NCBI GenBank assembly: GCA_046292975.1
Contig: JBKBPW010000003.1
Coordinates: forward strand, 1-38,473
Direction of reading: 5' to 3'
Length of the DNA stretch: 38,473 nt
From: Thermodesulfovibrionales bacterium
GTDB taxonomy: Bacteria; Nitrospirota; Thermodesulfovibrionia; Thermodesulfovibrionales; CALJEL01
Every line of letters starts with the position of its first letter. The first letter of the stretch is position 1. Below are positions 2,415-17,339 of this stretch, piece after piece. Under the pieces are notes generated by a model. It was given only the letters and a program-made list of their open reading frames with translations. It was not told where the DNA came from and ran no database searches. The position numbers and the translations under genes were made by a program.

Positions 2415-4241
2415 TTAAGGTGCTGTTGTAAATTTATAAAGCTCACTTTCTGTTACTCCACCCTTGCCATCATCAGCTACTACCTTCCAGTAATAGGTTG
2501 TCCCATTTTGAAGCCCAGATACTGTGTAAGAAACCTCTTGAGAAGGAGGATTGCCTCCACCACCAGTACCTCCACCACCAGTACCTCCACCACCAGTACC
2601 TCCACCGCCAGTGCCTCCACCAGTACCACCACCGCTATCTCCACCACCTCCACAGGAGCCAAGAACAAGTACACCAGCAATTATTATAGCCATAATAACA
2701 ATGCCTATCCCCTTCCTCTTTCTTGATACCACCAGACTAACAACACCTCCAAATAATGCAATAGGAATTATCTGGTATAAAGAGGCAAAGGCATAACCAT
2801 GGCTGTTTGAATTGGAGGCAACTGTGATAGGTTGCACATTTGTGAAACTTTGGTCTGTTCCATAGTAAAGTTTATATTTAATTGTATCTCCATCTGGATC
2901 TGTAGATTTCGTCCACTTGAATGTAACAGCTGTGGGTAGGTTAGTAGAGCCATTAGATGGATAGATAAGTGTTGGTTTTGAAGGAGCATGGTTGGTGGTA
3001 GTTCCACCGCCTATGAACTCACCATAGACATCACACTCTGAGCTGAATATAGTGCTACCACATTTATTTATCAGAGCCAGAAAGCCAGCAGAGCTATCAT
3101 ATTCAATTATACCACCAAATTCTATACCAGCACCAGCACTGATATCAAAGGGATTGCCTATCATCATATCCTTTGTGCTTACATACCTTGCCCTTATATC
3201 CCAGCATGTCCCTTCTGTGCTGTCACAGACTCCTAAGTTAGAGGTATCTGGTGTGTAATCATTGTAGGCAACGATGAACTTTTTACCATCAAACCCTATA
3301 GTAGGAACAATCTGTGAGCCATTCTGTTTTATATAAAATGGTCCACTTATAATTTTCCCATCAGTTCCAACTATGATACCCTTAATGTCCCAGTTACCAG
3401 TTCCTGCCTGTGAGCATGGTATATAATCCGTCCCCCTCTGCTCATGGTAGGCAATTAGATAGGAACCAAGACCGAATTTAACATATGGAGGGTTATCGCT
3501 GCATCTTGGGTCTGAATCTACTTCGAATTCTACTCCTAGGGTGCCATCAGGTGCAACAAATCTTGCCATGACAATCTTGTCCTTACTATCTTCAATCCAT
3601 ACAACAAGGAAATTTGTTCCATCAAAATCTACTGCAGGCATACGACCATTACCAGAGCTTATCCTAAATTCAGGACCTACAGTGCCATCAGTTGATACAA
3701 TTCTACCAGCTATATACATGTTATCATATTTTTTTCCTTGTGATGGGTCAATAAGCTTTGTATAAACAACTAAATATTTGTTACTGCCATCAAAGGCAAT
3801 TCGTTTAACACTATCACCATCTATGCCTTTAGAACTTATAGAGAATGGTTGTCCAACGGAATTACCATTTTTATCAACAAATAATCCCCATATTTGCAGA
3901 TAACTGTAATCCCGTTGTGTATTGCCATTTGAATCTTCCCATGTCATGAGATATTTTGTTCCATCAAAGGCAACACCCGTAGCAAAGAAACCTCTCCTGC
4001 CAGTGTCAATGGTTTTCAGAATAGTTCCATCACTTTTGAATAATACAGCCTTTATAGGACCACTTACATCCCAGGTCCCTTGTGCAATACTAACAAGGAA
4101 ATTCCCGTTACCATCACCTGCTCCTGCAAGACCTATGTCAGGCACTGAAGGCTGGTTAGAGATCGGAAAAGAAAAAGAAGGACCTGAAGCAATCATGACC
4201 AGGAACATAACAGATAGAAATATCAAACTGCCTTTCCTCAT
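2415..4241 (-). CDS. Secreted, Cys-containing beta-repeat (propeller-like) surface protein with a C-terminal FN3-like domain interrupted by a transmembrane hairpin and internal lipobox
   Basis: N-terminal signal peptide and repeated (A/D/G)FDG-x-(K/N)-(Y/F)-L-(V/M) blades. C-terminus reads NHAPSKPTLIYP...FKWTKSTDPDGDTIKYKLY, then TM-RKRK-TM-LGSC-(G4T)n, then YTVSGLQNGTTYYWKVVADDGKGG...YKFTT. Confidence 0.7.
   Translation of the reverse strand: MRKGSLIFLSVMFLVMIASGPSFSFPISNQPSVPDIGLAGAGDGNGNFLVSIAQGTWDVSGPIKAVLFKSDGTILKTIDTGRRGFFATGVAFDGTKYLMTWEDSNGNTQRDYSYLQIWGLFVDKNGNSVGQPFSISSKGIDGDSVKRIAFDGSNKYLVVYTKLIDPSQGKKYDNMYIAGRIVSTDGTVGPEFRISSGNGRMPAVDFDGTNFLVVWIEDSKDKIVMARFVAPDGTLGVEFEVDSDPRCSDNPPYVKFGLGSYLIAYHEQRGTDYIPCSQAGTGNWDIKGIIVGTDGKIISGPFYIKQNGSQIVPTIGFDGKKFIVAYNDYTPDTSNLGVCDSTEGTCWDIRARYVSTKDMMIGNPFDISAGAGIEFGGIIEYDSSAGFLALINKCGSTIFSSECDVYGEFIGGGTTTNHAPSKPTLIYPSNGSTNLPTAVTFKWTKSTDPDGDTIKYKLYYGTDQSFTNVQPITVASNSNSHGYAFASLYQIIPIALFGGVVSLVVSRKRKGIGIVIMAIIIAGVLVLGSCGGGGDSGGGTGGGTGGGGTGGGGTGGGGTGGGGNPPSQEVSYTVSGLQNGTTYYWKVVADDGKGGVTESELYKFTTAP
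2554..2653 (-). repeat. 15-bp tandem repeat encoding a GGGGT linker
   Basis: cctccaccaccagta repeated on the + strand, inside the 608-aa CDS. Confidence 0.9.
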
Positions 4242-4312
4242 AAAGACCTCCTCTTAACATTATTAAGCTTGCCCAAGGCAAGCTATACTCTAGCTTTGTT
4301 ACCTCTAACATA

Positions 4313-4341
4313 ATTATATTCTACATATTCAATGTTGTCAA
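4313..4341 (-). promoter_or_regulatory. Perfect-consensus sigma-70 promoter for the 608-aa surface protein
   Basis: Minus strand TTGACA (4341-4336), 17-nt spacer, TATAAT (4318-4313). A 5'-UTR hairpin agcttgcc-caa-ggcaagct (4266-4284) and a GAGGAGG SD follow. Confidence 0.85.
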
Positions 4342-4392
4342 TCAGCCGCGTTTCCTCAAAAATAATCTCTTCGAAGTGGAATGGTATAACCT

Positions 4393-6411
4393 TTACTCCT
4401 TTGTCCTCCTAAAAAATATGAGGCCTGTAAAGGCAACAATAATAATGATTGCTATTTGCGGATACTGGATGCTATAGACCAAAGGTGTAAGCATTATCCT
4501 GGTAGCTATTTTTAAGGACTCATGTCTGCTTATGATATTTGCTATAGGTGGTGATATCCTGTAATAGAATTCTACAAATCTTCTACCTATAGCATTTGTC
4601 ATAAGATATTTGTCTCTCCATACTCTTAAGATCTGCACATGTGGATTAAGGTAGCTTCCGTAAGCTGCTGTTGCAATAAAACAGCCTCCCCCACTACTTC
4701 CGCTATTACCACCTCCCCCACTACTTCCGCTGTTACCACCTCCCCCACTACTTCCGCTGTTACTTGTTATATTTGCGATAACAGAATTTGAGAGCCCTGA
4801 CTCATCTCCTGATGAATCCACAGCACTTACCTGATAGATGTAACCATTTTGAGCAGAGTTATCTGTAAAGGACAGAGATGTTGTCTGGTCAAGATATGAA
4901 CCATTTCTATAAATTTTATAATAGGATGCACCATCTACAGGGCTCCATGAAAGGGTCTTTGAATTTATTGTAAGGCCCTGAGGTGGAAGAGGGCCAAAGC
5001 CTATAAGCAGGGTTATATTGCCTCCGCTTTCATTTATATTCCTCAGATTTACCCATCCATAAGGTGTATAGGGATTGGATGAGGGATTTCCAACAGGTGT
5101 AAGGTGATTCTTCCCGGTAATTCCAGGAAATGGGTCAGAGGGGCTACCGCAGTCATCATTTCCTGAGCATCCATATTTCAGGAGATTCCAGTCACCATCT
5201 GCCTCTATGAGCTTTACTCCAGGCCTATAAAGGCTATTGTTTATAGTATTTGAATTAATATTCTGGTTTATGACATCTTCATCTATGAGCCAGACAAGAA
5301 GTCCGTGACCTGGAAGACCCTTATCAAAACCTGTTAATTGTCTGTTTTCAAGTAAAAGGTATTGATTTACTGTGGATGTTGATGCCTGAAGTTTTATTAT
5401 CTCTGGATATGTCTCAATTGGAGAAAGGATTTTCTGAACTCCATCAGAAGATATCTCCTCAGGTGTGACCCATCCGAGGTATACCTTACTCCATGCATCA
5501 GGATGGCTGGGAGAGCTACCATAGATACATGAACCGTTACTACAGGTTAAAGGGTCACTGTTATAAATTCCATCACCCATAAGACTCCACCTGCCCACTC
5601 CATCAAGAAGGCATATCAGATTTGTGCAGTAAAGATCAGGAAGCCCAAGCCAGTGAGCAAATTCATGGACATAAACTCCAAAGGGGTCAACAACTATATT
5701 ATCCTGAGAACCTGTCTGTGGCATGATGATAGCCTCTTTAATCTGCCTTCCATCTACTGTAAGGCAGTTTGTGCCAGTATCATTGGGTGATATGCATGCA
5801 TCCTGATAATAAAGAGACCAGATGTCCTTCGGTGTATCACCATTTAAATCTGTCTCCTCACCAGCACCTGCGTGAATTATGAATATGGCGTCATACTGGC
5901 TGAAATCAATATCGCTATCTGCCTGAGTGATACTGTCATATATGAGGTTTTCAAGGGCACTGTAACTCTCATCACCATAATAGGACATTGAATGGGGAAG
6001 GATATAGATCTTCTGAGATATAGTGATATTAACTTGGAGTTTTCCATATGATGCCTCTGACCAGTAATTGATAAATTTATCCTTTGCATTATTCAACCAG
6101 TAATCAGGATCATTATTCGGGCATCCTGTCTGGGAGCCACACCATTGCCATGTTCCATTTCCTGTAGTCTGAGGGTCATCAGGAGATTCATTCTGAAACT
6201 GGACCCTTAAGAATAACACATTCACAGTAGCTGGATACTGAATCGGTGCAAATAATGCCATTGGCATCTTTTTAGCGAGCCTTTCTTTTATAGGAATGCC
6301 AGGTCTTTCAACAGGCTCCTTTTTTGTCTTTGTGATATGGGGTGCTCCAAAAACTAATGAGTGCAAAAAGAACAAAGATATAATAAATAAAACCCTTATG
6401 CCCGCTATCAT
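4393..6411 (-). CDS. M6-family (immune inhibitor A-like) metalloprotease with an FN3-like domain and a CFI-box C-terminal domain
   Basis: Signal peptide; [49 protein letters not shown]-terminal [14 protein letters not shown]...LRVWRD..L...GRRFV.FYY..SPPIA followed by a TM segment and basic tail. Confidence 0.9.
4685..4763 (-). repeat. 27-bp tandem repeat (about 3 copies) encoding an NSGSSGGGG linker
   Basis: cctcccccactacttccgctRttacca x3, immediately N-terminal to the CFI box. Confidence 0.9.
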
Positions 6412-7079
6412 TATCTCTTTTCTCCAGAAATTCTTAGCTCTTCCTTTACTATGAATTGATACCCCTCGTCTGTCTCTATAATCTTTCCTCTTAAAACCAC
6501 AGGCATTCCTATTATATCAGACATAACCCTTGGCCCTTTATTCTTAAACAGACCCTTCACAGCCTCAATAGGAAGCCATGGTTTTAGTAGTATCTCTTTT
6601 TGCCTGTCTGTGATAAAAAATTTTGAATCTTTATCAAAATATCCACCTTTATGGGTAATCCATCCTGTAAGGATAAAGTCATCCACAGGCAATCTTTCCA
6701 TTGCCTCAGATACTGTTATTGCACCCATCTTTAATCCTTTGATAATCACATAAGAGTCCTTTATATCCTTTGCTCCTGAGAATCTTGTCCTGAATTTTTT
6801 ATCTTCAAGGACAACGAGTGAGGGTACACCCTTTAGGGCATATCTTTCTTTTAGTTCTTTTGTTCCACTTTTAACAGGGAATGGAAGCTCAGGTGCCTCC
6901 TTTTTTCCATAAAGGATGCCTTCAACAGGGAATTCCTCATTTAATTCTTTTACATAAGGCATCACCTCTTTACAATGAGGACAGGTAGCAGAGAAGAAGA
7001 GGAGGAGTTTTAGCTCAGAGGCTGAGGCAGTAGATATAAAAAAAGCACATAGACTCAATATCAAAAAGACCTTTTTCAT
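6411..7079 (-). CDS. Exported thioredoxin-fold protein (CPHC) with a C-terminal beta-rich (OB-like) domain
   Basis: Signal peptide; FFSATCPHC and GVPSLVV cis-Pro motif. Stop overlaps the M6 start (TAATG). Confidence 0.8.
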
Positions 7080-7089
7080 TGGATTTAAG

Positions 7090-7119
7090 ACTCAGGCGGG
7101 GCATATGCCCCGCCTGAGT
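7090..7119. repeat. Perfect 30-bp palindrome downstream of the large lipoprotein gene (mRNA-stabilising hairpin or partial terminator)
   Basis: actcaggcggggcat|atgccccgcctgagt; no U-tract on the minus strand. Confidence 0.85.
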
Positions 7120-7123
7120 GTGG

Positions 7124-9109
7124 TTATCTCCTCAAGCCCTTTGCCTTCTTTGGTGCAAACATTCCAAAGGCACCATCATGCCAGAGCTCAAGATTAGGAT
7201 CATGGGCCTTAACCGTAACACTTCCGTTTGTCTCAACTACTATATCAGCAACTGCAAACCAGGCATTCGGATTATGACCTCCTTCATGATCGGAGGCTGT
7301 ATATGTGCAGTTGTAAGGCCCAAATATGGAATCGCCTATTTGGATTGTCACTGTATTGGACACTGTAACAGGACAGCTCCAGTTGTTCATAGATACAACA
7401 TAATACCCTGGAAGTAGCACAGTGGCTGTGAAATGCTCAAGACCACCCTTAGTGTTATCATAGTCTTTCCCATTTATGTCAAGACCAACATCAGCAATCC
7501 CATCACCTGTTATGTCCAAGTATTGTTCAAAATCAGAAACACCATCTCCATTAATATCGGGATTACTTCCATCCTTCTGGTGCCAATCAATATACCATGT
7601 GCCTTTAGTGGTGCTTGTCGGAGTCGTTGTGTTGTAGTAATTGACATGGATATCGGTATAGCACTTCAGGAGTCCATTCGGATCTGAATCTTTTGAGGAA
7701 GATGTGATTGTCATTGTATTGCCTGTAGTAGTCCCACCTGTCCCGCTTGGTGGAGGTGTCTCCTCATCCATTGTCTCAAAATCACAGAGTTGTGCAAGCT
7801 CGTCTTCACTGGCATAATTAGTAGTCTCTCCTGAATCCTGCTGACCATTATTGTTTGCATCAAACCATACTGTTACGGTGTCATCATTGTTCCATATAAT
7901 ATGGGTGTTGGTATTGATAGTGATGTGACCACTAATTGGACCCTTATTATCTCCATGGACATTATGAATAGGTGCCACTGTGTTAAATACAAAGGTCCCC
8001 TCAAAGCATGTGTCAGGTGTGAAGTCAGAAGCCACAGTTCCGCTTACTTTAATATCATCATAGGTGTTTGTTCCTGTGGAATCAAGTTTGAAATTACTAT
8101 ACATTATAGACACACTATTTTGATTCCCTGCCTCTGTCCAGCTTTCACTAAACTTTCCATTTGTGGTTATAGAAGCAGTATAGGTTCCCGTGGTAGTATT
8201 GAAATTGTATTCAAAGTCATTCTTAAGGTTTGTGAATGTCATGCTGTAGTCAGCATTATCAAGGTAGTCGTGAATACTCATTGAGCCATTGATAGTCATT
8301 GCCGTTGTTCCACTTGTTTGTGACCCTGATATTGTATAGGCTGTCTGAAGACCTGACATGCTCATCTTTGAAACCAGTGTCGCATAGTTATTTTCAAATT
8401 CAAGGATTGTAAATGGACTATTCTGGTTGCCAAAGGTCTCTGTAAATGTATATCCTGTCTGAGAGGCTGAACCAGTAAGATAAACAGGTCCGTTAAACTG
8501 AGCATCGCCTTCCCTGCAGTTATCAAATGTCATATCCAGATTAAAGGTATCGTCAAGGGGATTATCTGGTGTATTGTTATCATTACGGGAGCCGCTGTAG
8601 GTAAAGGTCCCACCATTATTACAATTTTTTGTACCTGGTCCTATGGGTGTAACAGTCTTCATTGTCATTGCCTTTTTAAGTGCATCTGCTGCAGCCATTA
8701 CTGCCTTTGACTTCGCAAACTTGCCTGAGAGCTTGATTGCCTTTGCCATACCAGGGTCAGGTTTGAGGGACTCTGGCATCTTAAACTCAGGTGCACTACC
8801 TACAAGACCACTTAACCCCAAATTTCCGAGATTTTGAAATGTAGTTGTGCTTCCATGTGCCATTGCTCCAGCCTGCCCAGCTGTTGAGGCAGCTTGAGTT
8901 GCCTGCTGGTTGTTGGATATCTGTGTTCCACCACCTCCTGTTCCACCACCGCCTGTTCCACCACCACCGCCTGTTCCACCACCACCTGTTCCACCACCGC
9001 CTGTTCCACCACCGCCTGTTCCACCACCGCCACCTCCGCAGGCAGTGAAGATAAGGCTAAGGCTGGCAAATATTACCAGAAGCAAAATAAATAGCTTAAA
9101 CCTCTTCAT
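7124..9109 (-). CDS. Large lipoprotein with a Gly/Thr tether, beta-rich domains and Ca-binding-like DxDxDG motifs
   Basis: Lipobox IFTA-C followed by (GGGGT)n; CNNGG...FDNC; DANNNGQQDSGE, DINGDGVSDFE, DITGDGIAD. AGGAGG SD upstream. Confidence 0.8.
   Translation of the reverse strand: MKRFKLFILLLVIFASLSLIFTACGGGGGGTGGGGTGGGGTGGGGTGGGGGTGGGGTGGGGTQISNNQQATQAASTAGQAGAMAHGSTTTFQNLGNLGLSGLVGSAPEFKMPESLKPDPGMAKAIKLSGKFAKSKAVMAAADALKKAMTMKTVTPIGPGTKNCNNGGTFTYSGSRNDNNTPDNPLDDTFNLDMTFDNCREGDAQFNGPVYLTGSASQTGYTFTETFGNQNSPFTILEFENNYATLVSKMSMSGLQTAYTISGSQTSGTTAMTINGSMSIHDYLDNADYSMTFTNLKNDFEYNFNTTTGTYTASITTNGKFSESWTEAGNQNSVSIMYSNFKLDSTGTNTYDDIKVSGTVASDFTPDTCFEGTFVFNTVAPIHNVHGDNKGPISGHITINTNTHIIWNNDDTVTVWFDANNNGQQDSGETTNYASEDELAQLCDFETMDEETPPPSGTGGTTTGNTMTITSSSKDSDPNGLLKCYTDIHVNYYNTTTPTSTTKGTWYIDWHQKDGSNPDINGDGVSDFEQYLDITGDGIADVGLDINGKDYDNTKGGLEHFTATVLLPGYYVVSMNNWSCPVTVSNTVTIQIGDSIFGPYNCTYTASDHEGGHNPNAWFAVADIVVETNGSVTVKAHDPNLELWHDGAFGMFAPKKAKGLRR
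8926..9037 (-). repeat. 15/18-bp tandem repeat encoding a GGGGT tether
   Basis: gttccaccaccgcct repeated about 6 times. Confidence 0.9.
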
Positions 9110-9183
9110 ACTAACCTCCTAAGCATTTTTTGAGGCCTCCAAAGAAGGCCTGATAGGTTACCAAAGAGACCCTACTTAACTTA

Positions 9184-9212
9184 AATTTATCACTTCCTTT
9201 TTGCCCTGTCAA
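9184..9212 (-). promoter_or_regulatory. Internal sigma-70 promoter for the large lipoprotein
   Basis: Minus strand TTGACA (9212-9207), 17-nt spacer, TGa-TAAATT extended -10 (9189-9184). Confidence 0.7.
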
Positions 9213-9219
9213 GTGAAAA

Positions 9220-10380
9220 TTACCAGCCTATATTAAAAAATACAAGGTGTCTTCTATCACTATCCTGACCTGAGTAGGCACCTACCTCCTCTGCATAGGT
9301 CACATAGGATACTGTAAAGAGCAAGAGCCTGAGGTCAGCTCCAAAGGTAGCATATCCCTGATAGAGCCCTGTCCTGAGCCCGAGGCTCATGAGCTTTCTG
9401 TCAATAAGGTAAAGCTCTCCACCAAGCCTGAGCCTCTTTGGTATATCACTATCCTGCTCATAGTTATTTAAGATATCCACATAGTCAATCCCGAATGTAA
9501 AGGAGTCAAATACAGGTATCTCTGGATTTATTGATGCACCAAGATTTACTGTCATGGGGATTTTTCCTGCTGCACCAAATTTCAGGTCTCCTATATTCAT
9601 AATGCTCAGGCCTGCAGAAGGCCTTAACCATGAATCCTGATAGAATTTATAAAGCATACCAAGGTCAGCTCCAATGGCATCTCCACTCTTTCTGAGTTCT
9701 TCTGTGATATAGTTTTCAAGATTATCCTGCTTTTCTACTATCTCCCTTGCTGTAAAAGAATGGACAAGGGTTTCGCGATGGAGTGCCTTTATTCCAAGAC
9801 CTCCGTAAAACCCCTTTCCTAAATCAATACTCATGCCTAAAATACCTCCACCTGTGAGGTCCGAATTTATCTCAAGAAGACCATTAGAGCCAAATCCCTG
9901 ATGGGTCATGGCATCAAGCCTTGCCCTTGCTATGCCACCAATAGCCAGTGCCCAGGAGCCCTGATTCCTGCCAATAGAGGACCAGTCTGCAATTCCAAGA
10001 TGTAGGTTCTTCCCCCTGTATTTTGCAAGGACATCATTTACAGCCATTAACTGATCATCACCTTCGTCACCATCTCCATCACGATCACCAACATCAAAGG
10101 CATCTCCCATATCAGATACAAAGTCAATTACATTTTTGCCTATGTCTGCTGATATACCAATGAGGTTGACCTCAAAATTCTTCTCAGGCATGTTGCTTAA
10201 TGTAGCAGGGTTGTAAAAGACTGCATCTGTCCTTCCACCTATGGCAATATAGGCACCACCCATACCCATTGCCCTTGGTGACTTATAAAGATAGGGATAT
10301 TCCCTTATAGTTGGCTCCTCAGCATAGGCAAGAGAGGAAATAATGACCAGAAATATTATTGTAAATAAAAGCCTCTTCAT
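9220..10380 (-). CDS. Outer-membrane beta-barrel, TraF-like / FadL-PorV superfamily
   Basis: Signal peptide; SPRAMGMGGAY...VFYNPA N-terminal motif; alternating amphipathic strands; LRTGLYQGYATFG; C-terminal aromatic beta-signal (FNIGW). Confidence 0.75.
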   Translation of the reverse strand: MKRLLFTIIFLVIISSLAYAEEPTIREYPYLYKSPRAMGMGGAYIAIGGRTDAVFYNPATLSNMPEKNFEVNLIGISADIGKNVIDFVSDMGDAFDVGDRDGDGDEGDDQLMAVNDVLAKYRGKNLHLGIADWSSIGRNQGSWALAIGGIARARLDAMTHQGFGSNGLLEINSDLTGGGILGMSIDLGKGFYGGLGIKALHRETLVHSFTAREIVEKQDNLENYITEELRKSGDAIGADLGMLYKFYQDSWLRPSAGLSIMNIGDLKFGAAGKIPMTVNLGASINPEIPVFDSFTFGIDYVDILNNYEQDSDIPKRLRLGGELYLIDRKLMSLGLRTGLYQGYATFGADLRLLLFTVSYVTYAEEVGAYSGQDSDRRHLVFFNIGW

Positions 10381-10394
10381 AATCGCCTCCTAAT

Positions 10395-11507
10395 TTACTG
10401 AATATTCTGAAGGTTTATGTTCTTAATATAATCTGCTATCTCACCAGAGGTGCAGTTATCACCACCACAAGCCTCAGTTTTTATCTGGTTTATTGAATTT
10501 ACAACATCCTCACTAACACCTGGAAGGGCATTACCCATTGAATCAATCATTGATTGGACTGCTTCATCAATAGCACTTACAAGGTCAAGGGGCTGACCAT
10601 TCTGTTCAATAGGGCAGGGCCATTTGTTATTATTGTTATTATTATAATTATCTTCGCAGACTGTTCCACCTGTGGTTGTTGCGACCCAGTAGTTATTGGA
10701 ACTATCTTTATAAAGAAGCTTCTTTCTATATAAATCATCCATAGGGCATCCTGATGACGGACCACTACCCGTAATATTAACAATAAGGCCTTTATAATAT
10801 CCGCTATAAGTAATATTATTATTTTGAGTATTTTTTAAAGTGAGTCGATTACCCGGAGGGGCATCTGGAGACCATGAAATAGTAACTACTCCATGTCCGT
10901 TATTTCCGTTTAAGGATGAGCAATCAGGAGGCTGGTTATTAAAAAGCTGGGCACTCACCAGTAAGGCACAGGCAGTAGCATCCACATCATCAGGGACTTC
11001 GTTACCATTTATATCACATTCTGTAAGGAGCTGGCCATCTCCATCAGAATCTATAACTATCTTTAATAAGCTTAAGGTCTTCATTGCCTGAACAAGGCTC
11101 AGATAAAACTGGGCATCGTTATAATAAGGAGAATCAGGAGGAACATTACCATATTCTGTTTTTGCATTGTCAAGGTTTGTAAGGGTTGTCTCATCTACCT
11201 TTGGAACAAGTGCCTTCATATACAAATCAATAGGTTCTACATTTTGATTCTGGTTCTGTGCCTCGGAAAGCCTGTTTATAACATCCTTAACATCAAAGCC
11301 CGCCTTACCAAAATAGGCAGCTCCCTTATCCATTGAAGAGGCACAGGATGAACTTATGACTGCATCATAGTTGCCACTGTCAAGGTCTTTGCTTACTTTA
11401 TACTGGCAAGCCTCTTGAGAACTGTCATTAGCAATGAATTGGAAGGCACTGTCTCCACAGGAATTTAAAAGTAGTAAAATAAGCACAAAAAATACTAAAA
11501 GCCTCAT
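10395..11507 (-). CDS. Cys-rich lipoprotein of unknown function
   Basis: Lipobox LLNS-C; helical N-terminal half (AAYFGKAGFD); about 10 further Cys; DSDGDG motif; 14 bp upstream of the TraF-like barrel. Confidence 0.75.
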   Translation of the reverse strand: MRLLVFFVLILLLLNSCGDSAFQFIANDSSQEACQYKVSKDLDSGNYDAVISSSCASSMDKGAAYFGKAGFDVKDVINRLSEAQNQNQNVEPIDLYMKALVPKVDETTLTNLDNAKTEYGNVPPDSPYYNDAQFYLSLVQAMKTLSLLKIVIDSDGDGQLLTECDINGNEVPDDVDATACALLVSAQLFNNQPPDCSSLNGNNGHGVVTISWSPDAPPGNRLTLKNTQNNNITYSGYYKGLIVNITGSGPSSGCPMDDLYRKKLLYKDSSNNYWVATTTGGTVCEDNYNNNNNNKWPCPIEQNGQPLDLVSAIDEAVQSMIDSMGNALPGVSEDVVNSINQIKTEACGGDNCTSGEIADYIKNINLQNIQ

Positions 11508-11571
11508 ATCATTCTCCTTTCTGGCACAAGGCCAATTTATGTTTTAAGGCCTAAAAGGCCTTCTATGTTTT

Positions 11572-12831
11572 TTAAAAAGAATAGCCACCTCCTATAAAGA
11601 CCGTAATTGAGTCTATCCTTACATCCTGAATAGCAGTGGAATTAGGTATAACCTGGGCATCTCCTATCCCATAAGTATATATAGCACCGAGGGTTAAGCT
11701 TGAATTTCTTGTAAAGTATGTGATACTCATGGTTGTCCCATAATTATCCACATGTTCAATTTGATTTACTCCTCCTGGCTTCACAGAAGGTGTGTTTGCC
11801 CTATCAGTGAAAAGACCAAACCTAAGGGCAAGGGATGGTGATAGATAATACTCTGCACCAATTGCACCATTAATGACAGCCTCATAATTTTCTACAGAAC
11901 TATAATATTGAAGGTCTACTGAAACCAAAAAGGAAGGTGAAGGAAAATAGGCAATCCCGAGCTTTGTCTCAAAAGGAAAATCCCTCTTTCTTGAAGACTC
12001 CTGAACTGTAAAATATACATCGTTTGAACCGTAACCAGAACTTGAAGGTCCTCTTACAGTTATCTGCACCCTGGACTCAGAGTCAAATAAGAATGTCCTT
12101 GCCACAGTAAATCCCAGGGATACTTTATCCACTGGAGAAAACATAAGACCAATAATAGGCCTTATCCCATATTCCTTCCGGGAGAGATAATAATTCTCCC
12201 AGTCAAACTCTCCATTGCTGAGATTTAAAAGATGATTTCTTATAAATTTACGATCCCTGTAATAAAAATAAAGGGTCGCACCTGCAGAAAGGTTATCGCC
12301 GAGCTTAATTGCATAGGAAGGTCCGAAGTTATAGGCATCGTCTACATCATCAATATTGAGGACATATCTATCAATAGTAACACCAGGGATTGCAGATCTT
12401 ATATCCCTGAAGACCTGCTCTTGATCCCTGCTAACTGAGTCTGTAACTGCATAAGAAAAACCCGCTATCCCAGGGCCAAATTTCTGTATTACACCAAAGA
12501 AATTTGGTATAAGCCTTGATGACTTGAGTTCCCAGTCCTCACCCTCACCAGTGGTCTTATGAAGGGCATCCTTAAAGGTCTTTGTAGAGATATTATAGGC
12601 ATTAACACTTATAGATATCCTTCTTGCTGATGCAAAGGCAATTCCAGCAGGATTATAAAAACAACCTGATGGATCATCAGAAACAGCTGTATAGGCACCT
12701 CCCATGCCTGCTGCCCTTTCTCCAGGGATGGAGTTAATATAATGATGCTCATCAGCAAGTGAGAAGGAGCTCATGGCAAGGATTGAGACTACGATGAGAA
12801 ATAAAAAACTACTTAACCCTCGTCTTTTCAT
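11572..12831 (-). CDS. OmpP1/FadL (PorV-like) outer-membrane beta-barrel
   Basis: Signal peptide; GERAAGMGGAYTAVSDDPSGCFYNPAG; C-terminal GGGYSF beta-signal. Confidence 0.85.
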   Translation of the reverse strand: MKRRGLSSFLFLIVVSILAMSSFSLADEHHYINSIPGERAAGMGGAYTAVSDDPSGCFYNPAGIAFASARRISISVNAYNISTKTFKDALHKTTGEGEDWELKSSRLIPNFFGVIQKFGPGIAGFSYAVTDSVSRDQEQVFRDIRSAIPGVTIDRYVLNIDDVDDAYNFGPSYAIKLGDNLSAGATLYFYYRDRKFIRNHLLNLSNGEFDWENYYLSRKEYGIRPIIGLMFSPVDKVSLGFTVARTFLFDSESRVQITVRGPSSSGYGSNDVYFTVQESSRKRDFPFETKLGIAYFPSPSFLVSVDLQYYSSVENYEAVINGAIGAEYYLSPSLALRFGLFTDRANTPSVKPGGVNQIEHVDNYGTTMSITYFTRNSSLTLGAIYTYGIGDAQVIPNSTAIQDVRIDSITVFIGGGYSF

Positions 12832-13639
12832 AGAACCTATCCTTTAATAAAGTTCCTTCCTTACCAGCAAGCTGGTTTTTGTTTATAAATTGTTCTATTT
12901 CCCTAATCCTGTGCTCAAGCCCTGGATGGGTGCCCTGTATCTCCTTTTCATAACCCTTCTCTAAGAGTCTTTTTAAAAATCTCAAAAGTCCTGATGAATC
13001 ATAGCCTGTAGTGGCAAGAAGACCTGTTGCTATAGTATCTGAAGATAGTTCATCTTCCCTCTTATATCCCCTTTCAAAGAGTATCTCATAGGCCTTATCT
13101 ATAAAGGTGGTAAATAATGCCTCTGCTGAGCCTGTTGCTCCAGAGATAAGACTTGCAAATCCTAAGAGGGGTGATTCATCAGGTGCCCTGAGGTTTATCT
13201 CCTTTACAATATGCCTCTCTGTAACATGGGCTATCTCATGCCCAAGGACACCTGCAAGCTCTGCCTCATCATCCATTGCCATGAGTGCTCCTTTTGTAAT
13301 AAAGATATATCCACCTGGTGCTGAGAAGGCATTTATTTTGTCTGTATCAAGGATCCCAAAATGGAATTCTATCTCTGGCCTTCCAGCATGCTGGGCAAGG
13401 GCCCTGCCAATAAGATTGATATATTCAGTAAGCGTCCTATCCTTTAATAAGGGGTATCTGCCAAGTATCCTTTCAGAGAGGGAACGGCCAAATATAATCT
13501 CTGCCTTTATATCATCCTCTGTTTTGTAGGCCTCTTCTTCAGAGGTCTGGGACAGTCTCTTTCTGAAATCCTCTCCATAGGCATTATGAAGAAAGATAGT
13601 AAAAAGGAGGGTTATGATTATACTTATTTTTAATATCAT
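12809..13639 (-). CDS. Exported M48-family metallopeptidase (BepA/LoiP-like)
   Basis: INAFSAPGGYIFITKG, ELAGVLGHEIAH, REDELSSD, THP...RI; signal peptide. Confidence 0.92.
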   Translation of the reverse strand: MILKISIIITLLFTIFLHNAYGEDFRKRLSQTSEEEAYKTEDDIKAEIIFGRSLSERILGRYPLLKDRTLTEYINLIGRALAQHAGRPEIEFHFGILDTDKINAFSAPGGYIFITKGALMAMDDEAELAGVLGHEIAHVTERHIVKEINLRAPDESPLLGFASLISGATGSAEALFTTFIDKAYEILFERGYKREDELSSDTIATGLLATTGYDSSGLLRFLKRLLEKGYEKEIQGTHPGLEHRIREIEQFINKNQLAGKEGTLLKDRFYEKTRVK

Positions 13640-14127
13640 CTCTTCATACCTTCCTCAAGAAACTTTATTGCCTCTTCATCACTTACATGGATGGCCTCAA
13701 GCCATCTGAGACTTTCAGGATCAATCCTGTAGCGGTCACTAAGCCTTGCCCTCTCCTCCATAAGACCCCTTGCTGCTGCAGCTGTTACAAAAGCAGAGGC
13801 CCTTTTCCTTGCACCATGCTGTAATTCCTCCTCAGAGGTCTCAATTATGGAGAGCCTCTTTGAAGGTGGTTTTGTATCAACTACAAATGCAGATACCCAT
13901 CCGGAAATATCTTTATATCTAACCCTGTACCACCTGTCCTTCTTTTCAACACCATATAAAACCTCTCCCCTTTCAACCTTTACAAGCTCCTTTGCACCCA
14001 TAAGAGGTTCAGAGAGGATTGATGCCTTTATGCTCTGGACATAAAGTTTGATCTCCTCTGCATAAAGGCTGGGGCAAAGGACAAGGGTTAGTATGATAAC
14101 CATTAATGGTGTTCCTCTTTTAAACAT
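13636..14127 (-). CDS. Exported SH3-domain protein
   Basis: Signal peptide; WYRVRY..ISGWVS bacterial SH3-like motif; TAAAARGL segment; ATGA overlap with the M48 gene. Confidence 0.8.
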   Translation of the reverse strand: MFKRGTPLMVIILTLVLCPSLYAEEIKLYVQSIKASILSEPLMGAKELVKVERGEVLYGVEKKDRWYRVRYKDISGWVSAFVVDTKPPSKRLSIIETSEEELQHGARKRASAFVTAAAARGLMEERARLSDRYRIDPESLRWLEAIHVSDEEAIKFLEEGMKR

Positions 14128-14137
14128 ATCACACCTC

Positions 14138-16282
14138 CTATTTTTCCATTACCTCCCACACACCATCCCATGATGGTTCCGGTTCTTTCTTCATAAAATA
14201 TGTGATCCTTTCTATAAATATCCTCGGAACAGTATCACCAAGGCTCAATTCCTCCATCTCCTTATACATAGCCAGGGCCTCCTGCCACCTTCTGCTTAAA
14301 TAATACTCCAATGCCTGCTCTGAAAGCAAGGTAATTTTACCATTGCTATCACCTTCCATTAATGGTTCAAATATCTTAACAGGTTTCACCTTACCCTTTA
14401 CCCTGACAACATCAATAGGTCTCAATAAGACCCTTGTCTTAACCCTTTGTGCTGTATCCTCAGAGATTATAATGGGAACCCTGTATAACCTTGTTAAACC
14501 CTGAAGTCTTGAGGCAAGATTAACATTGTCTCCAATAACTGTATAGTCAAGCCTCTTTGGGGAGCCGATATTCCCGAGTATTACCTCTCCTGTATGAATA
14601 CCTGTGCCTGTTTTAAGTTCTGGAAGTCCTTTTTCTTTAAGTATCCTGTTGACCTCTGCCATTTCCCTCTGGATCTGAAGACTGCTCATAACTGCCCTCA
14701 GGGCATGGTCTTCCATCCTGACAGGTGCTCCCCAGAATGCCATTATACAATCTCCCATAAATTTGTCAATGGTGCCCTCATACCGAAAGATTATCTCAAC
14801 AGCCCTTTCAAAATATATATTCAAGGCCTCCACTATATCCTCAGCAGGATATCTTTCAGAAAGGCTTGTAAAACCTTCTATGTCAGAAAAAAGCACTGTA
14901 AGCTCAACCCTTATACCCCTTTCAGCAAGTAAAAGGGACCCCTTTTTCTCAGATATGCCTGCAATTACTGCAGAGGAGACATATCTTTCAAACATCTCCT
15001 TTATTCTCCTCTTTTCTTTTTCTTCTGTTAGACTTAAATAGGTAAAGGCTGTAACAAAGGAGAGGATTCCTGAGGTAAGGGGTGCTGCCATCTCCATAAC
15101 AAAATTCAGTTTGAAGGCTATAAGAGACAGAAGGATATATAGGACAAGGGGTAGTAGTGAAAGTATGATTTTTAATCCAAAAGACCTGATCGTCAAGACC
15201 ATATAATTTATGAAAAAGGCCATTATTATAATTGATAGTCCTGTAAGGATTCCCGGTGACCATCTCAAAAAATCTTCTGTTAAGATATTTCCATATATGG
15301 AGGCATGAAGAAGAACCCCGGGTATCATAGCAGAAAGGGGAGTTGGCTTAAGGTCTTCCACCCCAACAGCACTTGCACCTATAAATACAACCTTTTTATT
15401 AAACTCATCAGGACTTACAGGAAGACCTTCTATATTACCCCTTTTTATCTTATGTATTGAGGCAAGGATACCGCTCATGGAATAGGGCTCAAATCCACCA
15501 TAAAGATTTATGATATAAAGGCCATTGTAAAGGGGGATTTTTTTAATACCTGAAGCTGTCTGCAATAAAAGGCTGTTTTTCTCTTCCTTAATGAGGTAAT
15601 CGGGTTCTATCAGAGGAGCAATAGAAAGCACAGGAAAATGGCTGCCATGATAGGTCCTTATGAGTTTGGTCCTTCTGTAGACGCCATCCTTATCAGATTT
15701 GAACTCTACAATGCCTATACCTTTTGAGGCTCTATAGAGTTCCCTGAAGGGTATGGCATAATTATTATTTTCTTTTATATGGATAAGTCTCACATTAGTA
15801 AGACCGAACATCCTCTGGAAATCTTCTGGAAGTTTTTTATCAAGGATATCCCTGTTCCACTCATCAGGTATATCCTTGAATATCTGAGCTGCATGATAGA
15901 CATTGCCTGCACCCTTGGTAGATTCCACAAGGGCACTATCATTTGCACTGAGCATACCTGGGGGTGCTTCATAAATCCTCTCATTCTCTGTAAAGAGAAT
16001 ATCAAAGACTATCGCCCTTGCACCACCAAGCCTCAGGAAATCAATTACATCAGCATGGACAGACCTTGGCCAGGGCCATCTTCCTGATATGGAGTTCATA
16101 AGTTTAAGAGAGGCCTCATCAATAAGAATAACTGATATTTCATCAGGAGGTTTTTTGCTGCTTCTTATTATCTTTACCCTCATATCATAAAGCATAAGCT
16201 CAGGTCTCTCGAAAAAACCATAATGCCAGAGAAGTGCTATAGATATGAAGATAGGTAGGGCTATCAAAAATTTCCATCTCAT
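14138..16282 (-). CDS. CHASE2-domain class III adenylate cyclase
   Basis: IDEASL...GRWPWPRSVHA, FDILF, DKDGVYRR, PGVLLHA (CHASE2); three TM segments; FSDIEGFT, DKFMGDCIMAFWG, YTVIGDNVNLASRL (Lys/Thr specificity residues of class IIIb ACs); C-terminal WDGVW. Confidence 0.93.
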   Translation of the reverse strand: MRWKFLIALPIFISIALLWHYGFFERPELMLYDMRVKIIRSSKKPPDEISVILIDEASLKLMNSISGRWPWPRSVHADVIDFLRLGGARAIVFDILFTENERIYEAPPGMLSANDSALVESTKGAGNVYHAAQIFKDIPDEWNRDILDKKLPEDFQRMFGLTNVRLIHIKENNNYAIPFRELYRASKGIGIVEFKSDKDGVYRRTKLIRTYHGSHFPVLSIAPLIEPDYLIKEEKNSLLLQTASGIKKIPLYNGLYIINLYGGFEPYSMSGILASIHKIKRGNIEGLPVSPDEFNKKVVFIGASAVGVEDLKPTPLSAMIPGVLLHASIYGNILTEDFLRWSPGILTGLSIIIMAFFINYMVLTIRSFGLKIILSLLPLVLYILLSLIAFKLNFVMEMAAPLTSGILSFVTAFTYLSLTEEKEKRRIKEMFERYVSSAVIAGISEKKGSLLLAERGIRVELTVLFSDIEGFTSLSERYPAEDIVEALNIYFERAVEIIFRYEGTIDKFMGDCIMAFWGAPVRMEDHALRAVMSSLQIQREMAEVNRILKEKGLPELKTGTGIHTGEVILGNIGSPKRLDYTVIGDNVNLASRLQGLTRLYRVPIIISEDTAQRVKTRVLLRPIDVVRVKGKVKPVKIFEPLMEGDSNGKITLLSEQALEYYLSRRWQEALAMYKEMEELSLGDTVPRIFIERITYFMKKEPEPSWDGVWEVMEK

Positions 16283-16301
16283 TTCTTATGTCCTCTTTCT
16301 T

Positions 16302-16310
16302 ATTGTAGCA
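16302..16310 (-). promoter_or_regulatory. Extended -10 promoter candidate for the cyclase-led operon
   Basis: Minus strand TGc-TACAAT, then AGAGGA SD and ATG at 16282; back-to-back with the RNase Z-like promoter. Confidence 0.45.
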
Positions 16311-16355
16311 TGCCATCCCTTACCACTTCACCGAAATTTTCTGTTAATATTCTTT

Positions 16356-17339
16356 ATGAAGTCCTATTTCAGGCACAGGCCTGTTAATGAGCCCTTTGAA
16401 GACCCCTGCCTTTTTGTGGGCATTGCAAGGCAGAAGAGGGCACTTCTTCTTGATGCCGGAGATCTCCACAGGCTCAGTCAGACAGAGCTTTACAAGGTCT
16501 CTGACCTATTTGTCACTCACATGCATATTGACCATTTTATTGGATTTGATACACTTCTCAGGGCAATCCTGAGAAGGCCTGTTCCCTTAAGGGTATATGG
16601 TCCTGAAGGGATAGTTGATGCTATTGATGGCAAGCTCAGGGGCTATACATGGAATCTTATAAGGTCTTATCCACTTAAGATAGAGGTCTTTGAGATTTCA
16701 GGTGGCACTATGTATGGTCTTATAAGACATTGTAGCTTCCATGCAGAAAATGGATTAAAGCCAGTTGACAGAGGATACAATGAATTTAATGGGTATGTCC
16801 TTAAAGAGCCTTTTTTCTCTATAAAGGCATTAAGTATTTCTCATGGAATTCCTGTGCTTGCCTACAGGATAGATGAGGAGATACATATAAATATTGATAA
16901 GGCGAAGCTTACAGACCGGAATATAGAGACAGGTCCGTGGCTCAGTGAGTTCAAGGAGGCTATTCTGAAAAATGACAGAGACAGGTACTTCAGGGCTGGC
17001 AATAAGACTATCTCTTTCAAGGAGATTGAGGATATTGCCCTCCTTACAGAGGGGCAGAAGATATCCTATGTAATGGATGTATCAATTGAAAGTGAAAATA
17101 TAGAAAGGATAGTGGACTTTGTGAGAGGTTCAGACTATCTCTATTGTGAGGCCTTTTTTCTTGAAAGAGACCTTGAACTTGCCAGTGAAAGAAATCATCT
17201 TACAGCGAGACTTGCCGGGGAGATTGCAAGGAGGGCTGGTGTGAGGAATCTTATCCCAATGCATTTTTCCCTGAGATATAAAGATCAGCCAGAAATCATT
17301 ATTGAAGAGGCAATGAAGGCCTTTTCAGGAAAAGATTAA
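16356..17339 (+). CDS. Ribonuclease Z-like metallo-beta-lactamase-fold hydrolase
   Basis: VNEPFEDP, LLDAGD, THMHIDHFIGFD, HGIPVLAY, HLTA, PMHFS. Start moved to ATG 16356 because the ORF-track start overlaps the divergent cyclase gene. Confidence 0.85.
   Translation: MKSYFRHRPVNEPFEDPCLFVGIARQKRALLLDAGDLHRLSQTELYKVSDLFVTHMHIDHFIGFDTLLRAILRRPVPLRVYGPEGIVDAIDGKLRGYTWNLIRSYPLKIEVFEISGGTMYGLIRHCSFHAENGLKPVDRGYNEFNGYVLKEPFFSIKALSISHGIPVLAYRIDEEIHINIDKAKLTDRNIETGPWLSEFKEAILKNDRDRYFRAGNKTISFKEIEDIALLTEGQKISYVMDVSIESENIERIVDFVRGSDYLYCEAFFLERDLELASERNHLTARLAGEIARRAGVRNLIPMHFSLRYKDQPEIIIEEAMKAFSGKD

Follow-up and report, generated by a model that had tools for sequence, protein, structure and literature searches.

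A mosaic of envelope gene modules around a predicted CHASE2 adenylate cyclase in a Thermodesulfovibrionales genome

The DNA analysed here, called the window, is a stretch of 38,473 nucleotides of a Thermodesulfovibrionales bacterium of the phylum Nitrospirota (assembly GCA_046292975.1, contig JBKBPW010000003.1, positions 1 to 38,473). The genome is a metagenome-assembled genome (MAG) of 1.84 Mb in 217 contigs, 89% complete. Ten co-oriented open reading frames (ORFs) of the minus strand, lying within positions 2415-16282, were labelled g01 to g10 in transcription order. We find that this region is a mosaic of three separable conserved modules and one stray gene, g10, and not a single operon of ten genes. 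Module 1 (g01-g04) codes for a CHASE2 adenylate cyclase, an exported SH3 protein, an M48 metallopeptidase and an outer-membrane barrel of the FadL/Toluene_X family (barrel A). Module 2 (g05-g06) codes for a Cys-rich lipoprotein and a second barrel (barrel B), and module 3 (g07-g09) for a Gly-tethered lipoprotein, an exported thioredoxin-fold protein and an M6 metalloprotease.

We assign a probability of about one half to the reading that combines this mosaic and its stray gene with a docking-and-reporting mechanism. Module 1 would be a signalling unit turning an event at the outer membrane into cyclic AMP (cAMP). Barrel A would dock or handle Gly/Ser-tethered lipoproteins encoded beside it, and the M48/SH3 pair would report the state of the barrel A-lipoprotein assembly to the CHASE2 domain. 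cAMP made by the cyclase would then act through cyclic nucleotide monophosphate (cNMP)-binding regulators encoded elsewhere in the genome. We infer the physical contacts within module 1, the signal that it senses and the exposure of the lipoproteins at the cell surface.

A first-pass annotation had presented the ten genes as one related envelope system for the export and display of surface lipoproteins, coupled to cAMP signalling. Its inventory of ten co-oriented genes with their domains is borne out by the ORFs and by Pfam/NCBIfam matches. The unity that it proposed holds in part: most of the genes form a recurrent set and the modules share genomes in two phyla, but the set breaks into three separable modules.

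Module 1, a conserved four-gene unit

The g01 product scores 165.6 bits against Pfam CHASE2 (cut-off 26.3) and 74.3 bits against Guanylate_cyc (cut-off 21.9) and is by both matches a CHASE2-class III cyclase; its catalytic motifs, as we read them in the sequence, suggest specificity for ATP. The g02 product stays under the Pfam cut-offs of SH3_4 (22 bits) and SH3_3 (20 bits), and the profile of its family matches solved SH3 domains weakly. An alignment of 33 sequences reveals an invariant carboxyl-terminal motif, RKRASA..AAAARGL, in this SH3 protein family. Gene 3 of the module, g03, gives 99.5 bits to Peptidase_M48 (cut-off 20.3). The solved chain closest to its product is the protease domain of BepA (E 2.7e-23), with the alignment covering BepA residues 24-234. 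The g04 product reaches 39.4 bits against Toluene_X/FadL (PF03349), above the gathering score of 29.7, and has no match at E ≤0.1 to solved structures by sequence. The signal peptides and domains of the four proteins predict that module 1 spans the envelope, with the barrel in the outer membrane, the M48 and SH3 proteins in the periplasm and the cyclase in the inner membrane.

Gene order, which is observed directly, is highly conserved. Scanning metagenomes with the SH3 family gave 80 loci, which at 97% nucleotide identity come down to 68 distinct ones. Immediately upstream of the SH3 gene there is a cyclase homologue in 62/63 loci with room for it, the exception being L094, where the cyclase comes after the barrel. 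The M48 gene is downstream of the SH3 gene in all 63 loci with room, and barrel A follows the M48 gene in 38/38; two short loci carry the barrel on the opposite strand. Among the 121 genomes of the order, barrel A is found in four, each time together with g01-g03. Two of the genomes analysed, G019 and G030, have the CHASE2 cyclase, SH3, M48 and barrel A genes in the order of the window, on a contig different from that of their g05-type lipoprotein/barrel-B pair; the genes 3' of their barrel A are a permease-like gene and ilvC, as read from the translations. In Aquificota, module 1 has the canonical order in L190, L192 and L193 and a rearranged one in L191.

The window genome encodes five cNMP-binding proteins elsewhere. 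It also has a second CHASE2 cyclase (genome G000, contig C68, 4719-6806), 31% identical to g01, that sits beside groES/groEL with no SH3, M48 or barrel gene nearby.

Several gene types adjoin module 1 in other loci. Genes resembling class-II cAMP phosphodiesterases, of the metallo-β-lactamase fold, are found there in L084, L087, L088, L089, L091, L191, L192 and L193, and GAF-HD genes in L034 and L192; the window itself has neither type. In the metagenome loci L076, L077, L079 and L085, and in part in L122, module 1 faces convergent genes of type II secretion (GspD secretin, GspL and GspM-like).

Module 2, a lipoprotein predicted to cap its barrel

The g05 family counts 181 homologues, has no Pfam match and conserves ten Cys residues. 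The model of the g05 product (predicted local distance difference test score, pLDDT, 87.6; predicted template modelling score, pTM, 0.86) gave 0 Foldseek matches in the PDB at E ≤0.001, the best having E 0.15 and a TM-score of 0.13. VIA-align against 48,161 chains reached at best Z 8.9, in alignments of 65-82 residues with small helical domains of the MIT/TPR-like kind; this value is within the range common for helical models and no fold was assigned to g05. A short tandem repeat at 10624-10651 encodes an Asn run in g05 where its relatives have gaps.

Barrel B has sub-threshold matches only to PorV_fam and TraF_2, and none to PF03349 at E ≤0.01. Its model (pLDDT 94.2) is a 14-stranded barrel for which Foldseek finds FadL (2r88_A, E 5.4e-9) and PorV (6h3i_F, E 9.9e-9), with TodX and TbuX among the top matches; the BamG chains 9n2d_B, 9hiv_F and 9hjm_F are also among the matches. 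At E ≤0.001, barrel B belongs to a large family of 1241 representative clusters.

Species genomes searched with the g05 family yielded 22 loci, under four phylum labels, from hosts given as Nitrospirota, Aquificaceae, Hydrogenothermaceae, Deferribacteres and Deltaproteobacteria. A barrel B homologue (50-72% identity) is the next gene after the g05-type lipoprotein in 19/19 assessable loci, the remaining 3 of the 22 loci ending at the lipoprotein gene. Among these loci, only L008, a contig of the same genus, has homologues of g01-g04 or g07-g10 near the g05-type gene. The first-pass annotation had each barrel followed by its lipoprotein. This is literally so in the window, but the conserved pairs differ: g05 belongs with the barrel downstream of it and not with barrel A, after which G019 and G030 have unrelated genes. 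Nor does the proposal that the thioredoxin folds this Cys-rich cargo fit the neighbourhoods: g08 travels with the M6 protease and the 661-amino-acid lipoprotein, and a g08 match was found in 0/22 loci of the g05 family.

The complex check that had been proposed for barrel and lipoprotein does yield an interface for g06 with g05. The interface score ipSAE was 0.81, 0.81 and 0.84 in the three predictions and 0.00 for the best of 3 controls; at least 81% of the contacts agree between runs and the partner pLDDT is at least 74. The ipSAE mark is reached by 58/80 solved complexes and by 2/110 mismatched pairs, counts that are rough, with custom alignments used. The barrel B residues at the interface (109-123, 159-167, 210-216, 309-317, 339-344 and 365-374) are in the loops after strands 1, 3, 5, 9, 11 and 13 of the 14-stranded model, which we read as extracellular because loops after odd strands face outwards by the usual topology rule. 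On the side of g05 the contacts begin at residue 18, right after the lipid-bearing Cys 17, and the interface includes residues 18-45. Genes g05 and g06 are thus predicted to be a self-contained cassette in which a surface lipoprotein caps the extracellular loops of barrel B, a complex of the SusCD or BamGH kind.

Module 3 and the proteases beside module 1

The g07 product has a lipobox signal peptide and no family match. A protein-atlas search found no usable feature match for it, and its structure matches were unnamed lipoprotein clusters with TM-scores by query of at most 0.39. The g08 product matches Pfam Thioredoxin with 26.8 bits (cut-off 23.5) and has the CPHC motif in its sequence. The g09 product belongs to the M6 (immune inhibitor A) family (TIGR03296, 139 bits, cut-off 110.8; HEFAH present). 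Its residues 577-645 match CFI-box-CTERM (NF041770) with 107.9 bits (cut-off 40), or 112.9 bits in the genome search. This CFI-box, at 4477-4683, is the sole one of the genome.

The expectation that homologues of the ten genes would cluster in other genomes proved right for g01-g09. These nine genes keep the order of the window in L068/L069, from another lineage, with 45-78% protein identity and unrelated flanks, and modules 1 and 3 are adjacent in shuffled orders elsewhere. Module 3 homologues are directly 3' of barrel A in L117/L155 (two handles of the same locus), upstream of the cyclase in L064, and in shuffled internal orders beside module 1 in L156, L157, L159, L160 and L161. Homologues of g07 adjoin module 1 in L064, L068/L069, L117/L155, L156, L157, L160 and L161. 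We conclude that module 3 is an accessory set found almost only beside module 1.

A 219-251-amino-acid protein with EFxKVYKEFDKVY-like repeats and a terminal transmembrane helix is encoded between the barrel-B and g07 homologues in L058 (9260-9919), L068 (7307-7966) and L069 (14840-15595); the window has just a 110-bp gap at this place. In locus L158 of genome G229 the M6 and thioredoxin genes (6055-10702) come directly after an NFACT-like gene, and related genomes have module 1 and a g07 homologue sitting between these same neighbours; module 1 seems to have been lost cleanly from G229.

Genes for secreted proteases are repeatedly found next to module 1: M6 enzymes with a CFI-box, an S8 enzyme with a CFI-box (L112) and S8 enzymes (L058, L192, L193). 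Module 1 might on this ground be the sorting or processing machinery of CFI-box-CTERM proteins, the M48 enzyme cleaving the anchor and the barrel exporting the passenger. The adjacent proteases fit such a role (M6 in the window, L064, L068/L069, L095 and L117; S8 in L112), and CFI-box proteins are present in each of the five genomes of the order that have a strong SH3 match. However, CFI-box proteins occur in 30/121 genomes of the order, of which only 5 have a strong SH3 match, and the CFI-box genes of G019 and G030 are on other contigs. The CFI-box being far commoner than SH3 matches, we rejected module 1 as a general CFI-box sorting machine, and we hold a sorting role of this kind to be highly improbable.

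Gly/Ser-tethered lipoproteins near module 1

Tethered lipoproteins were predicted by a regular expression of our own that takes a lipobox within residues 1-75 and at least 6 Gly/Ser in the 12 residues after the Cys. It finds 18 of them in 16/31 distinct module-1 loci (508 kb, 404 ORFs). They belong to several unrelated families, including g07-like proteins and proteins of 1500-1800 amino acids; L076 and L079 have a related fn3/PPC family that stays below the tether threshold. None was found in 17 other loci (281 ORFs), nor in 400 kb sampled at regular intervals from the fairly complete genomes G124 and G196 of family f22 (397 ORFs); 16/31 module-1 loci compare with 0/37 control stretches. In the window genome, g07 is the sole tethered lipoprotein among 1830 ORFs. 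The Aquificaceae locus L190 encodes a lipoprotein with an eleven-Gly run directly after barrel A.

These neighbours suggest that barrel A may dock or handle tethered lipoproteins. Nearly as likely, as far as barrel A is concerned, is that module 1 serves only as a sensor of nutrients or products: barrel A would admit hydrophobic molecules or peptides released by proteases without docking anything, the M48 and SH3 proteins would process or bind the ligand, and the CHASE2 cyclase would make cAMP that regulates the protease and lipoprotein genes. FadL-family barrels are uptake channels and g04 passes the Toluene_X cut-off. The secreted proteases beside module 1 (M6 in several loci; S8 in L112, L058, L192 and L193) would be a source of peptides, and the neighbouring cAMP phosphodiesterase-like and GAF-HD genes also agree with a sensory role. 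A pure sensor leaves unexplained why lipoproteins from unrelated families, and precisely those with Gly/Ser tethers, are the neighbours and why genomes with module 1 also tend to carry the barrel-lipoprotein cassette; moreover, we know of no CHASE2 domain for which the signal or ligand is known. Taken as an account of the whole, it seems to us a minority possibility, to be kept in mind beside docking and reporting.

Co-occurrence of the modules across genomes

Co-occurrence was counted by hand in 301 Nitrospirota genomes with the SH3 protein, the g05 lipoprotein and the g08 thioredoxin as markers of modules 1, 2 and 3, the SH3 count coming from apparently the same 301 genomes (identical family denominators). 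The SH3 marker is present in 30 genomes, the lipoprotein in 21 and the thioredoxin in 17. Modules 1 and 2 occur together in 18/301 genomes (18 of the 21 that have module 2), usually on different contigs. Modules 3 and 1 are found together in 14/301, all three modules in 13/301 and module 3 without module 1 in 3/301; 16 of the 17 thioredoxin-positive genomes are of one family. Among 151 Aquificota genomes, 7 have the SH3 marker and 22 the lipoprotein, and all 7 SH3-positive genomes are also lipoprotein-positive, or 5/5 after dropping two genomes that had been reached through the lipoprotein. This repetition of the overlap of modules 1 and 2 in a second phylum argues for a functional tie.

These data bear on the proposal from which we started, that all ten genes are one export-and-display machine in which the barrels export or anchor the cargo, the thioredoxin folds it and the cyclase/SH3/M48 proteins control the process. 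The nine genes in conserved order between unrelated flanks in L068/L069, the sharing of genomes by the three modules in two phyla, the enrichment of tethered lipoproteins beside module 1 and the predicted barrel-lipoprotein interface are all in its favour. Yet the modules are separate in many genomes, barrel A and the 370-amino-acid lipoprotein are not a conserved pair, the Cys-rich lipoprotein has no thioredoxin gene near it (0/22 loci), g10 is not kept with the set and promoter-like sites divide the cluster. A single machine appears unlikely to us, about as much so as a module 1 that only senses.

At the other extreme, the region could be a chance juxtaposition of unrelated envelope genes, with links that reflect shared descent. 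Most of the co-occurrence is indeed in family f22 and many module-1 loci have no other module within 10 kb. Chance does not account well for the several gene orders in which modules 1 and 3 are linked, with module 3 on one side of module 1 or the other, for modules 1 and 2 co-occurring again in Aquificota (5/5) or for the Gly-run lipoprotein that follows barrel A in Aquificaceae L190, and we give it little credit.

A number of observations weigh against docking and reporting within a three-module mosaic as well. Module 2 is found without module 1 in 3 Nitrospirota genomes, in 15/22 Aquificota genomes and in one Deltaproteobacteria MAG. Conversely, 12 of the 30 SH3-positive genomes of the phylum sample have no module 2 and 16 have no thioredoxin, and the M6 and thioredoxin genes persist in genomes G229 and G254, which have no SH3-family match at 1e-10. 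The counts of co-occurrence overstate the support because related genomes are not independent, most cases stemming from the single family f22. The tether predictor is crude and its background loci come from mixed organisms. The score of the g05-g06 complex may in part mirror the likeness to solved barrel-lipoprotein complexes. Sigma-70-like sites before g07 and g10 speak against a single transcript, and the ten genes are for this reason probably not transcribed as one unit.

Gene g10 and its split fn3 domain

Relatives of g10 in G001 and G003 share only about the first 465-468 residues and have different ends; they are on short contigs on which adjacency to the cluster cannot be judged. No g10 homologue was seen in module-1 loci. 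We therefore take g10, which the first-pass annotation had counted as a member of the cluster, as a variable gene outside the conserved set, with a promoter-like site of its own.

The last ~200 residues of g10 have an unusual architecture, an fn3 domain split by a transmembrane helix, the sequence RKRK, a second helix with a lipobox Cys at its end, and a Gly run, after which come the last fn3 strands. The same architecture ends six unrelated proteins (L052, L054 and P0303-P0306), with passengers that include a GSDH-like protein, an FG-GAP/VCBS/PKD protein, an S8 subtilase and a 1382-amino-acid frame. The module has no NCBIfam match, and in the protein atlas the g10 carboxyl terminus finds only fn3-like clusters (score 0.80), which we treat as a lead only. 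It is possibly an undescribed carboxyl-terminal anchoring signal.

Gene layout and surroundings

The features of the region are listed in Table 1. Genes within the modules are closely spaced: a 10-bp gap separates g01 from g02, followed by overlaps of 4 bp (g02/g03) and 23 bp (g03/g04); g05 and g06 are 14 bp apart; g07 and g08 are separated by 44 bp and g08 and g09 overlap by 1 bp. The gaps between modules are 64 bp (g04/g05) and 110 bp (g06/g07), and g10 follows g09 after 151 bp. A hairpin at 11546-11562, considered as a terminator between g04 and g05, was not retained as such because it has no T-run on the coding strand.

Table 1. Features of the g01-g10 region, positions in the window
Feature	Position	Strand	Basis
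g01, CHASE2-sensor class III adenylate cyclase, 714 amino acids, module 1	14138..16282	-	Pfam CHASE2 and Guanylate_cyc
g02, exported SH3 protein, 163 amino acids, module 1	13636..14127	-	Sub-threshold SH3_3/SH3_4, family profile
g03, exported M48 metallopeptidase, 276 amino acids, HEIAH, module 1	12809..13639	-	Pfam Peptidase_M48
g04, barrel A, FadL/Toluene_X outer-membrane barrel, 419 amino acids, module 1	11572..12831	-	Pfam Toluene_X
g05, Cys-rich lipoprotein, 370 amino acids, module 2	10395..11507	-	Lipobox signal peptide, no family match
g06, barrel B, 14-stranded FadL/PorV/BamG fold, 386 amino acids, module 2	9220..10380	-	Model and Foldseek
Promoter-like site 5' of g07	9184..9212	-	TTGACA-17-TAAATT with TG extension, 10/12 matches, consensus match only
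g07, lipoprotein, 661 amino acids, ~40-residue Gly-rich tether after lipobox Cys, module 3	7124..9109	-	Translation
g08, exported thioredoxin-fold CPHC protein, 222 amino acids, with ~110-amino-acid carboxyl-terminal domain, module 3	6411..7079	-	Pfam Thioredoxin
g09, M6 metalloprotease (HEFAH), Gly/Ser linker, CFI-box-CTERM, module 3	4393..6411	-	TIGR03296 and NF041770
Promoter-like site 5' of g10	4313..4341	-	TTGACA-17-TATAAT, 12/12 matches, consensus match only
g10, exported beta-repeat protein, 608 amino acids, variable gene	2415..4241	-	Translation; partial fn3 match only
g10 carboxyl-terminal split-fn3 module	2418..3011	-	Translation

Gly runs adjacent to a Cys, which the first-pass annotation had announced for three proteins, are present in the translations of g07, g09 and g10, and at the DNA level they are tandem repeats (8924-9031, 4685-4763 and 2554-2648, respectively). 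The rest of the window is made of housekeeping genes (hpf, dapB, RNase Z, YbeY, PhoH, RuvABC, PheST, ThrS). In agreement with the first-pass annotation, the window ORFs scanned showed no further genes of secretion systems. The divergent gene at 16245-17339 was considered as a cAMP phosphodiesterase and rejected, its product being RNase Z (338.5 bits versus a cut-off of 315). As annotated, this gene and g01 share 38 bp at their starts (16245-16282), and one of the two start codons is for this reason probably further in.

Implications

A literature search that had subscription journals and supplements outside its scope found no published description of modules 1-3, none of CHASE2 with an M48 peptidase, a FadL barrel or an outer-membrane operon, and no paper on CFI-box-CTERM. 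The four-gene unit, conserved in two deep-branching phyla, names three candidate partners of CHASE2: the barrel, the protease and the SH3 protein. That Nitrospirota and Aquificota have an undescribed trans-envelope system in which a FadL/BamG-type barrel with tethered lipoproteins signals through a BepA-like protease/SH3 adaptor to a CHASE2 cyclase is a tentative idea that we consider rather doubtful in this complete form. If true, it would provide the first defined input for the orphan CHASE2 sensor domain, and the display of surface lipoproteins on FadL-like barrels, g05-g06 included, would not be limited to Bacteroidota. The confidently predicted barrel-lipoprotein pair of thermophilic Nitrospirota/Aquificota suggests by itself that the principle may be wider than Bacteroidota. 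CFI-box-CTERM and the split fn3 domain with its internal lipoprotein signal may both be undescribed modes of anchoring.

Comparison with known systems

Among described systems, the barrel-lipoprotein pairs come closest to BamG-BamH and BamG2-BamH2 of Bacteroidota (PMC12578637). BamG, of the β-barrel assembly machinery (BAM), is there a 14-stranded FadL-homologue barrel whose extracellular loops bind the surface lipoprotein BamH, with the amino terminus of the BamH-type lipoprotein held against the barrel, and BamG2-BamH2 are a paralogous barrel and lipoprotein encoded side by side; FadL-like barrel/surface-lipoprotein complexes are described only in Bacteroidota (PMC12578637). Barrel B is alike in fold, with matches to BamG chains, and in a predicted interface that uses loops and the amino-terminal segment of the lipoprotein. 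It differs in its hosts, Nitrospirota and Aquificota, in having as partner g05, a lipoprotein with no family or clear fold match, and in that any link to BamA would be hypothetical. The BamG family NF053685 gives 29.5 bits for barrel A (cut-off 250) and no match for g06.

The first-pass annotation had drawn an analogy with PorV of the type IX secretion system, which holds for the fold only. Barrel B has the FadL-like 14-strand fold of PorV (6h3i_F) and both barrels match PorV_fam (NF033709) weakly, but with 45.8 bits (g04) and 50 bits (g06) they are under its cut-off of 90, and their scores against the PorV/PorQ equivalogs are far below the cut-offs of 220-250. The partner here is a lipoprotein and not a cargo with the type IX carboxyl-terminal domain (CTD). 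SprA_N (PF14349) and the type IX CTD (TIGR04183) have no match in the window genome, which is 89% complete, 14 control genomes being equally silent.

The likeness to FadL, TodX and TbuX is clearer, barrel A being above the Toluene_X cut-off and barrel B, with its 14 strands, having FadL as best fold match. These classical channels work alone, whereas barrel A is encoded in a proposed signalling operon and barrel B together with a lipoprotein predicted to cap it. The g03 product aligns to the protease domain of BepA, the M48 enzyme that enhances β-barrel assembly, and has the HEXXH motif, but it is devoid of the carboxyl-terminal TPR and scores 108 bits against the NCBIfam BepA family (NF052400), whose cut-off is 570.

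Two further kinds of system offer parallels in organization. Slam (DUF560) loci have a conserved barrel gene next to lipoprotein genes that vary and come from unrelated families, a layout shared by barrel A, but the barrel is of another family and Slam loci are not known to carry cyclase, SH3 or M48 partners. Trans-envelope signalling of the FecA-FecR-FecI type likewise groups the genes for a barrel of the outer membrane, intermediates in the periplasm and a transducer in the inner membrane. RcsF, threaded through outer-membrane proteins, is a lipoprotein with a disordered linker that is held by a barrel and reports the state of the envelope. Module 1 has no sequence relation to the Fec and Rcs systems, and its barrel is FadL-type and not TonB-dependent; where those systems act through a sigma factor or a phosphorelay, its output would be that of a CHASE2 class III adenylate cyclase.

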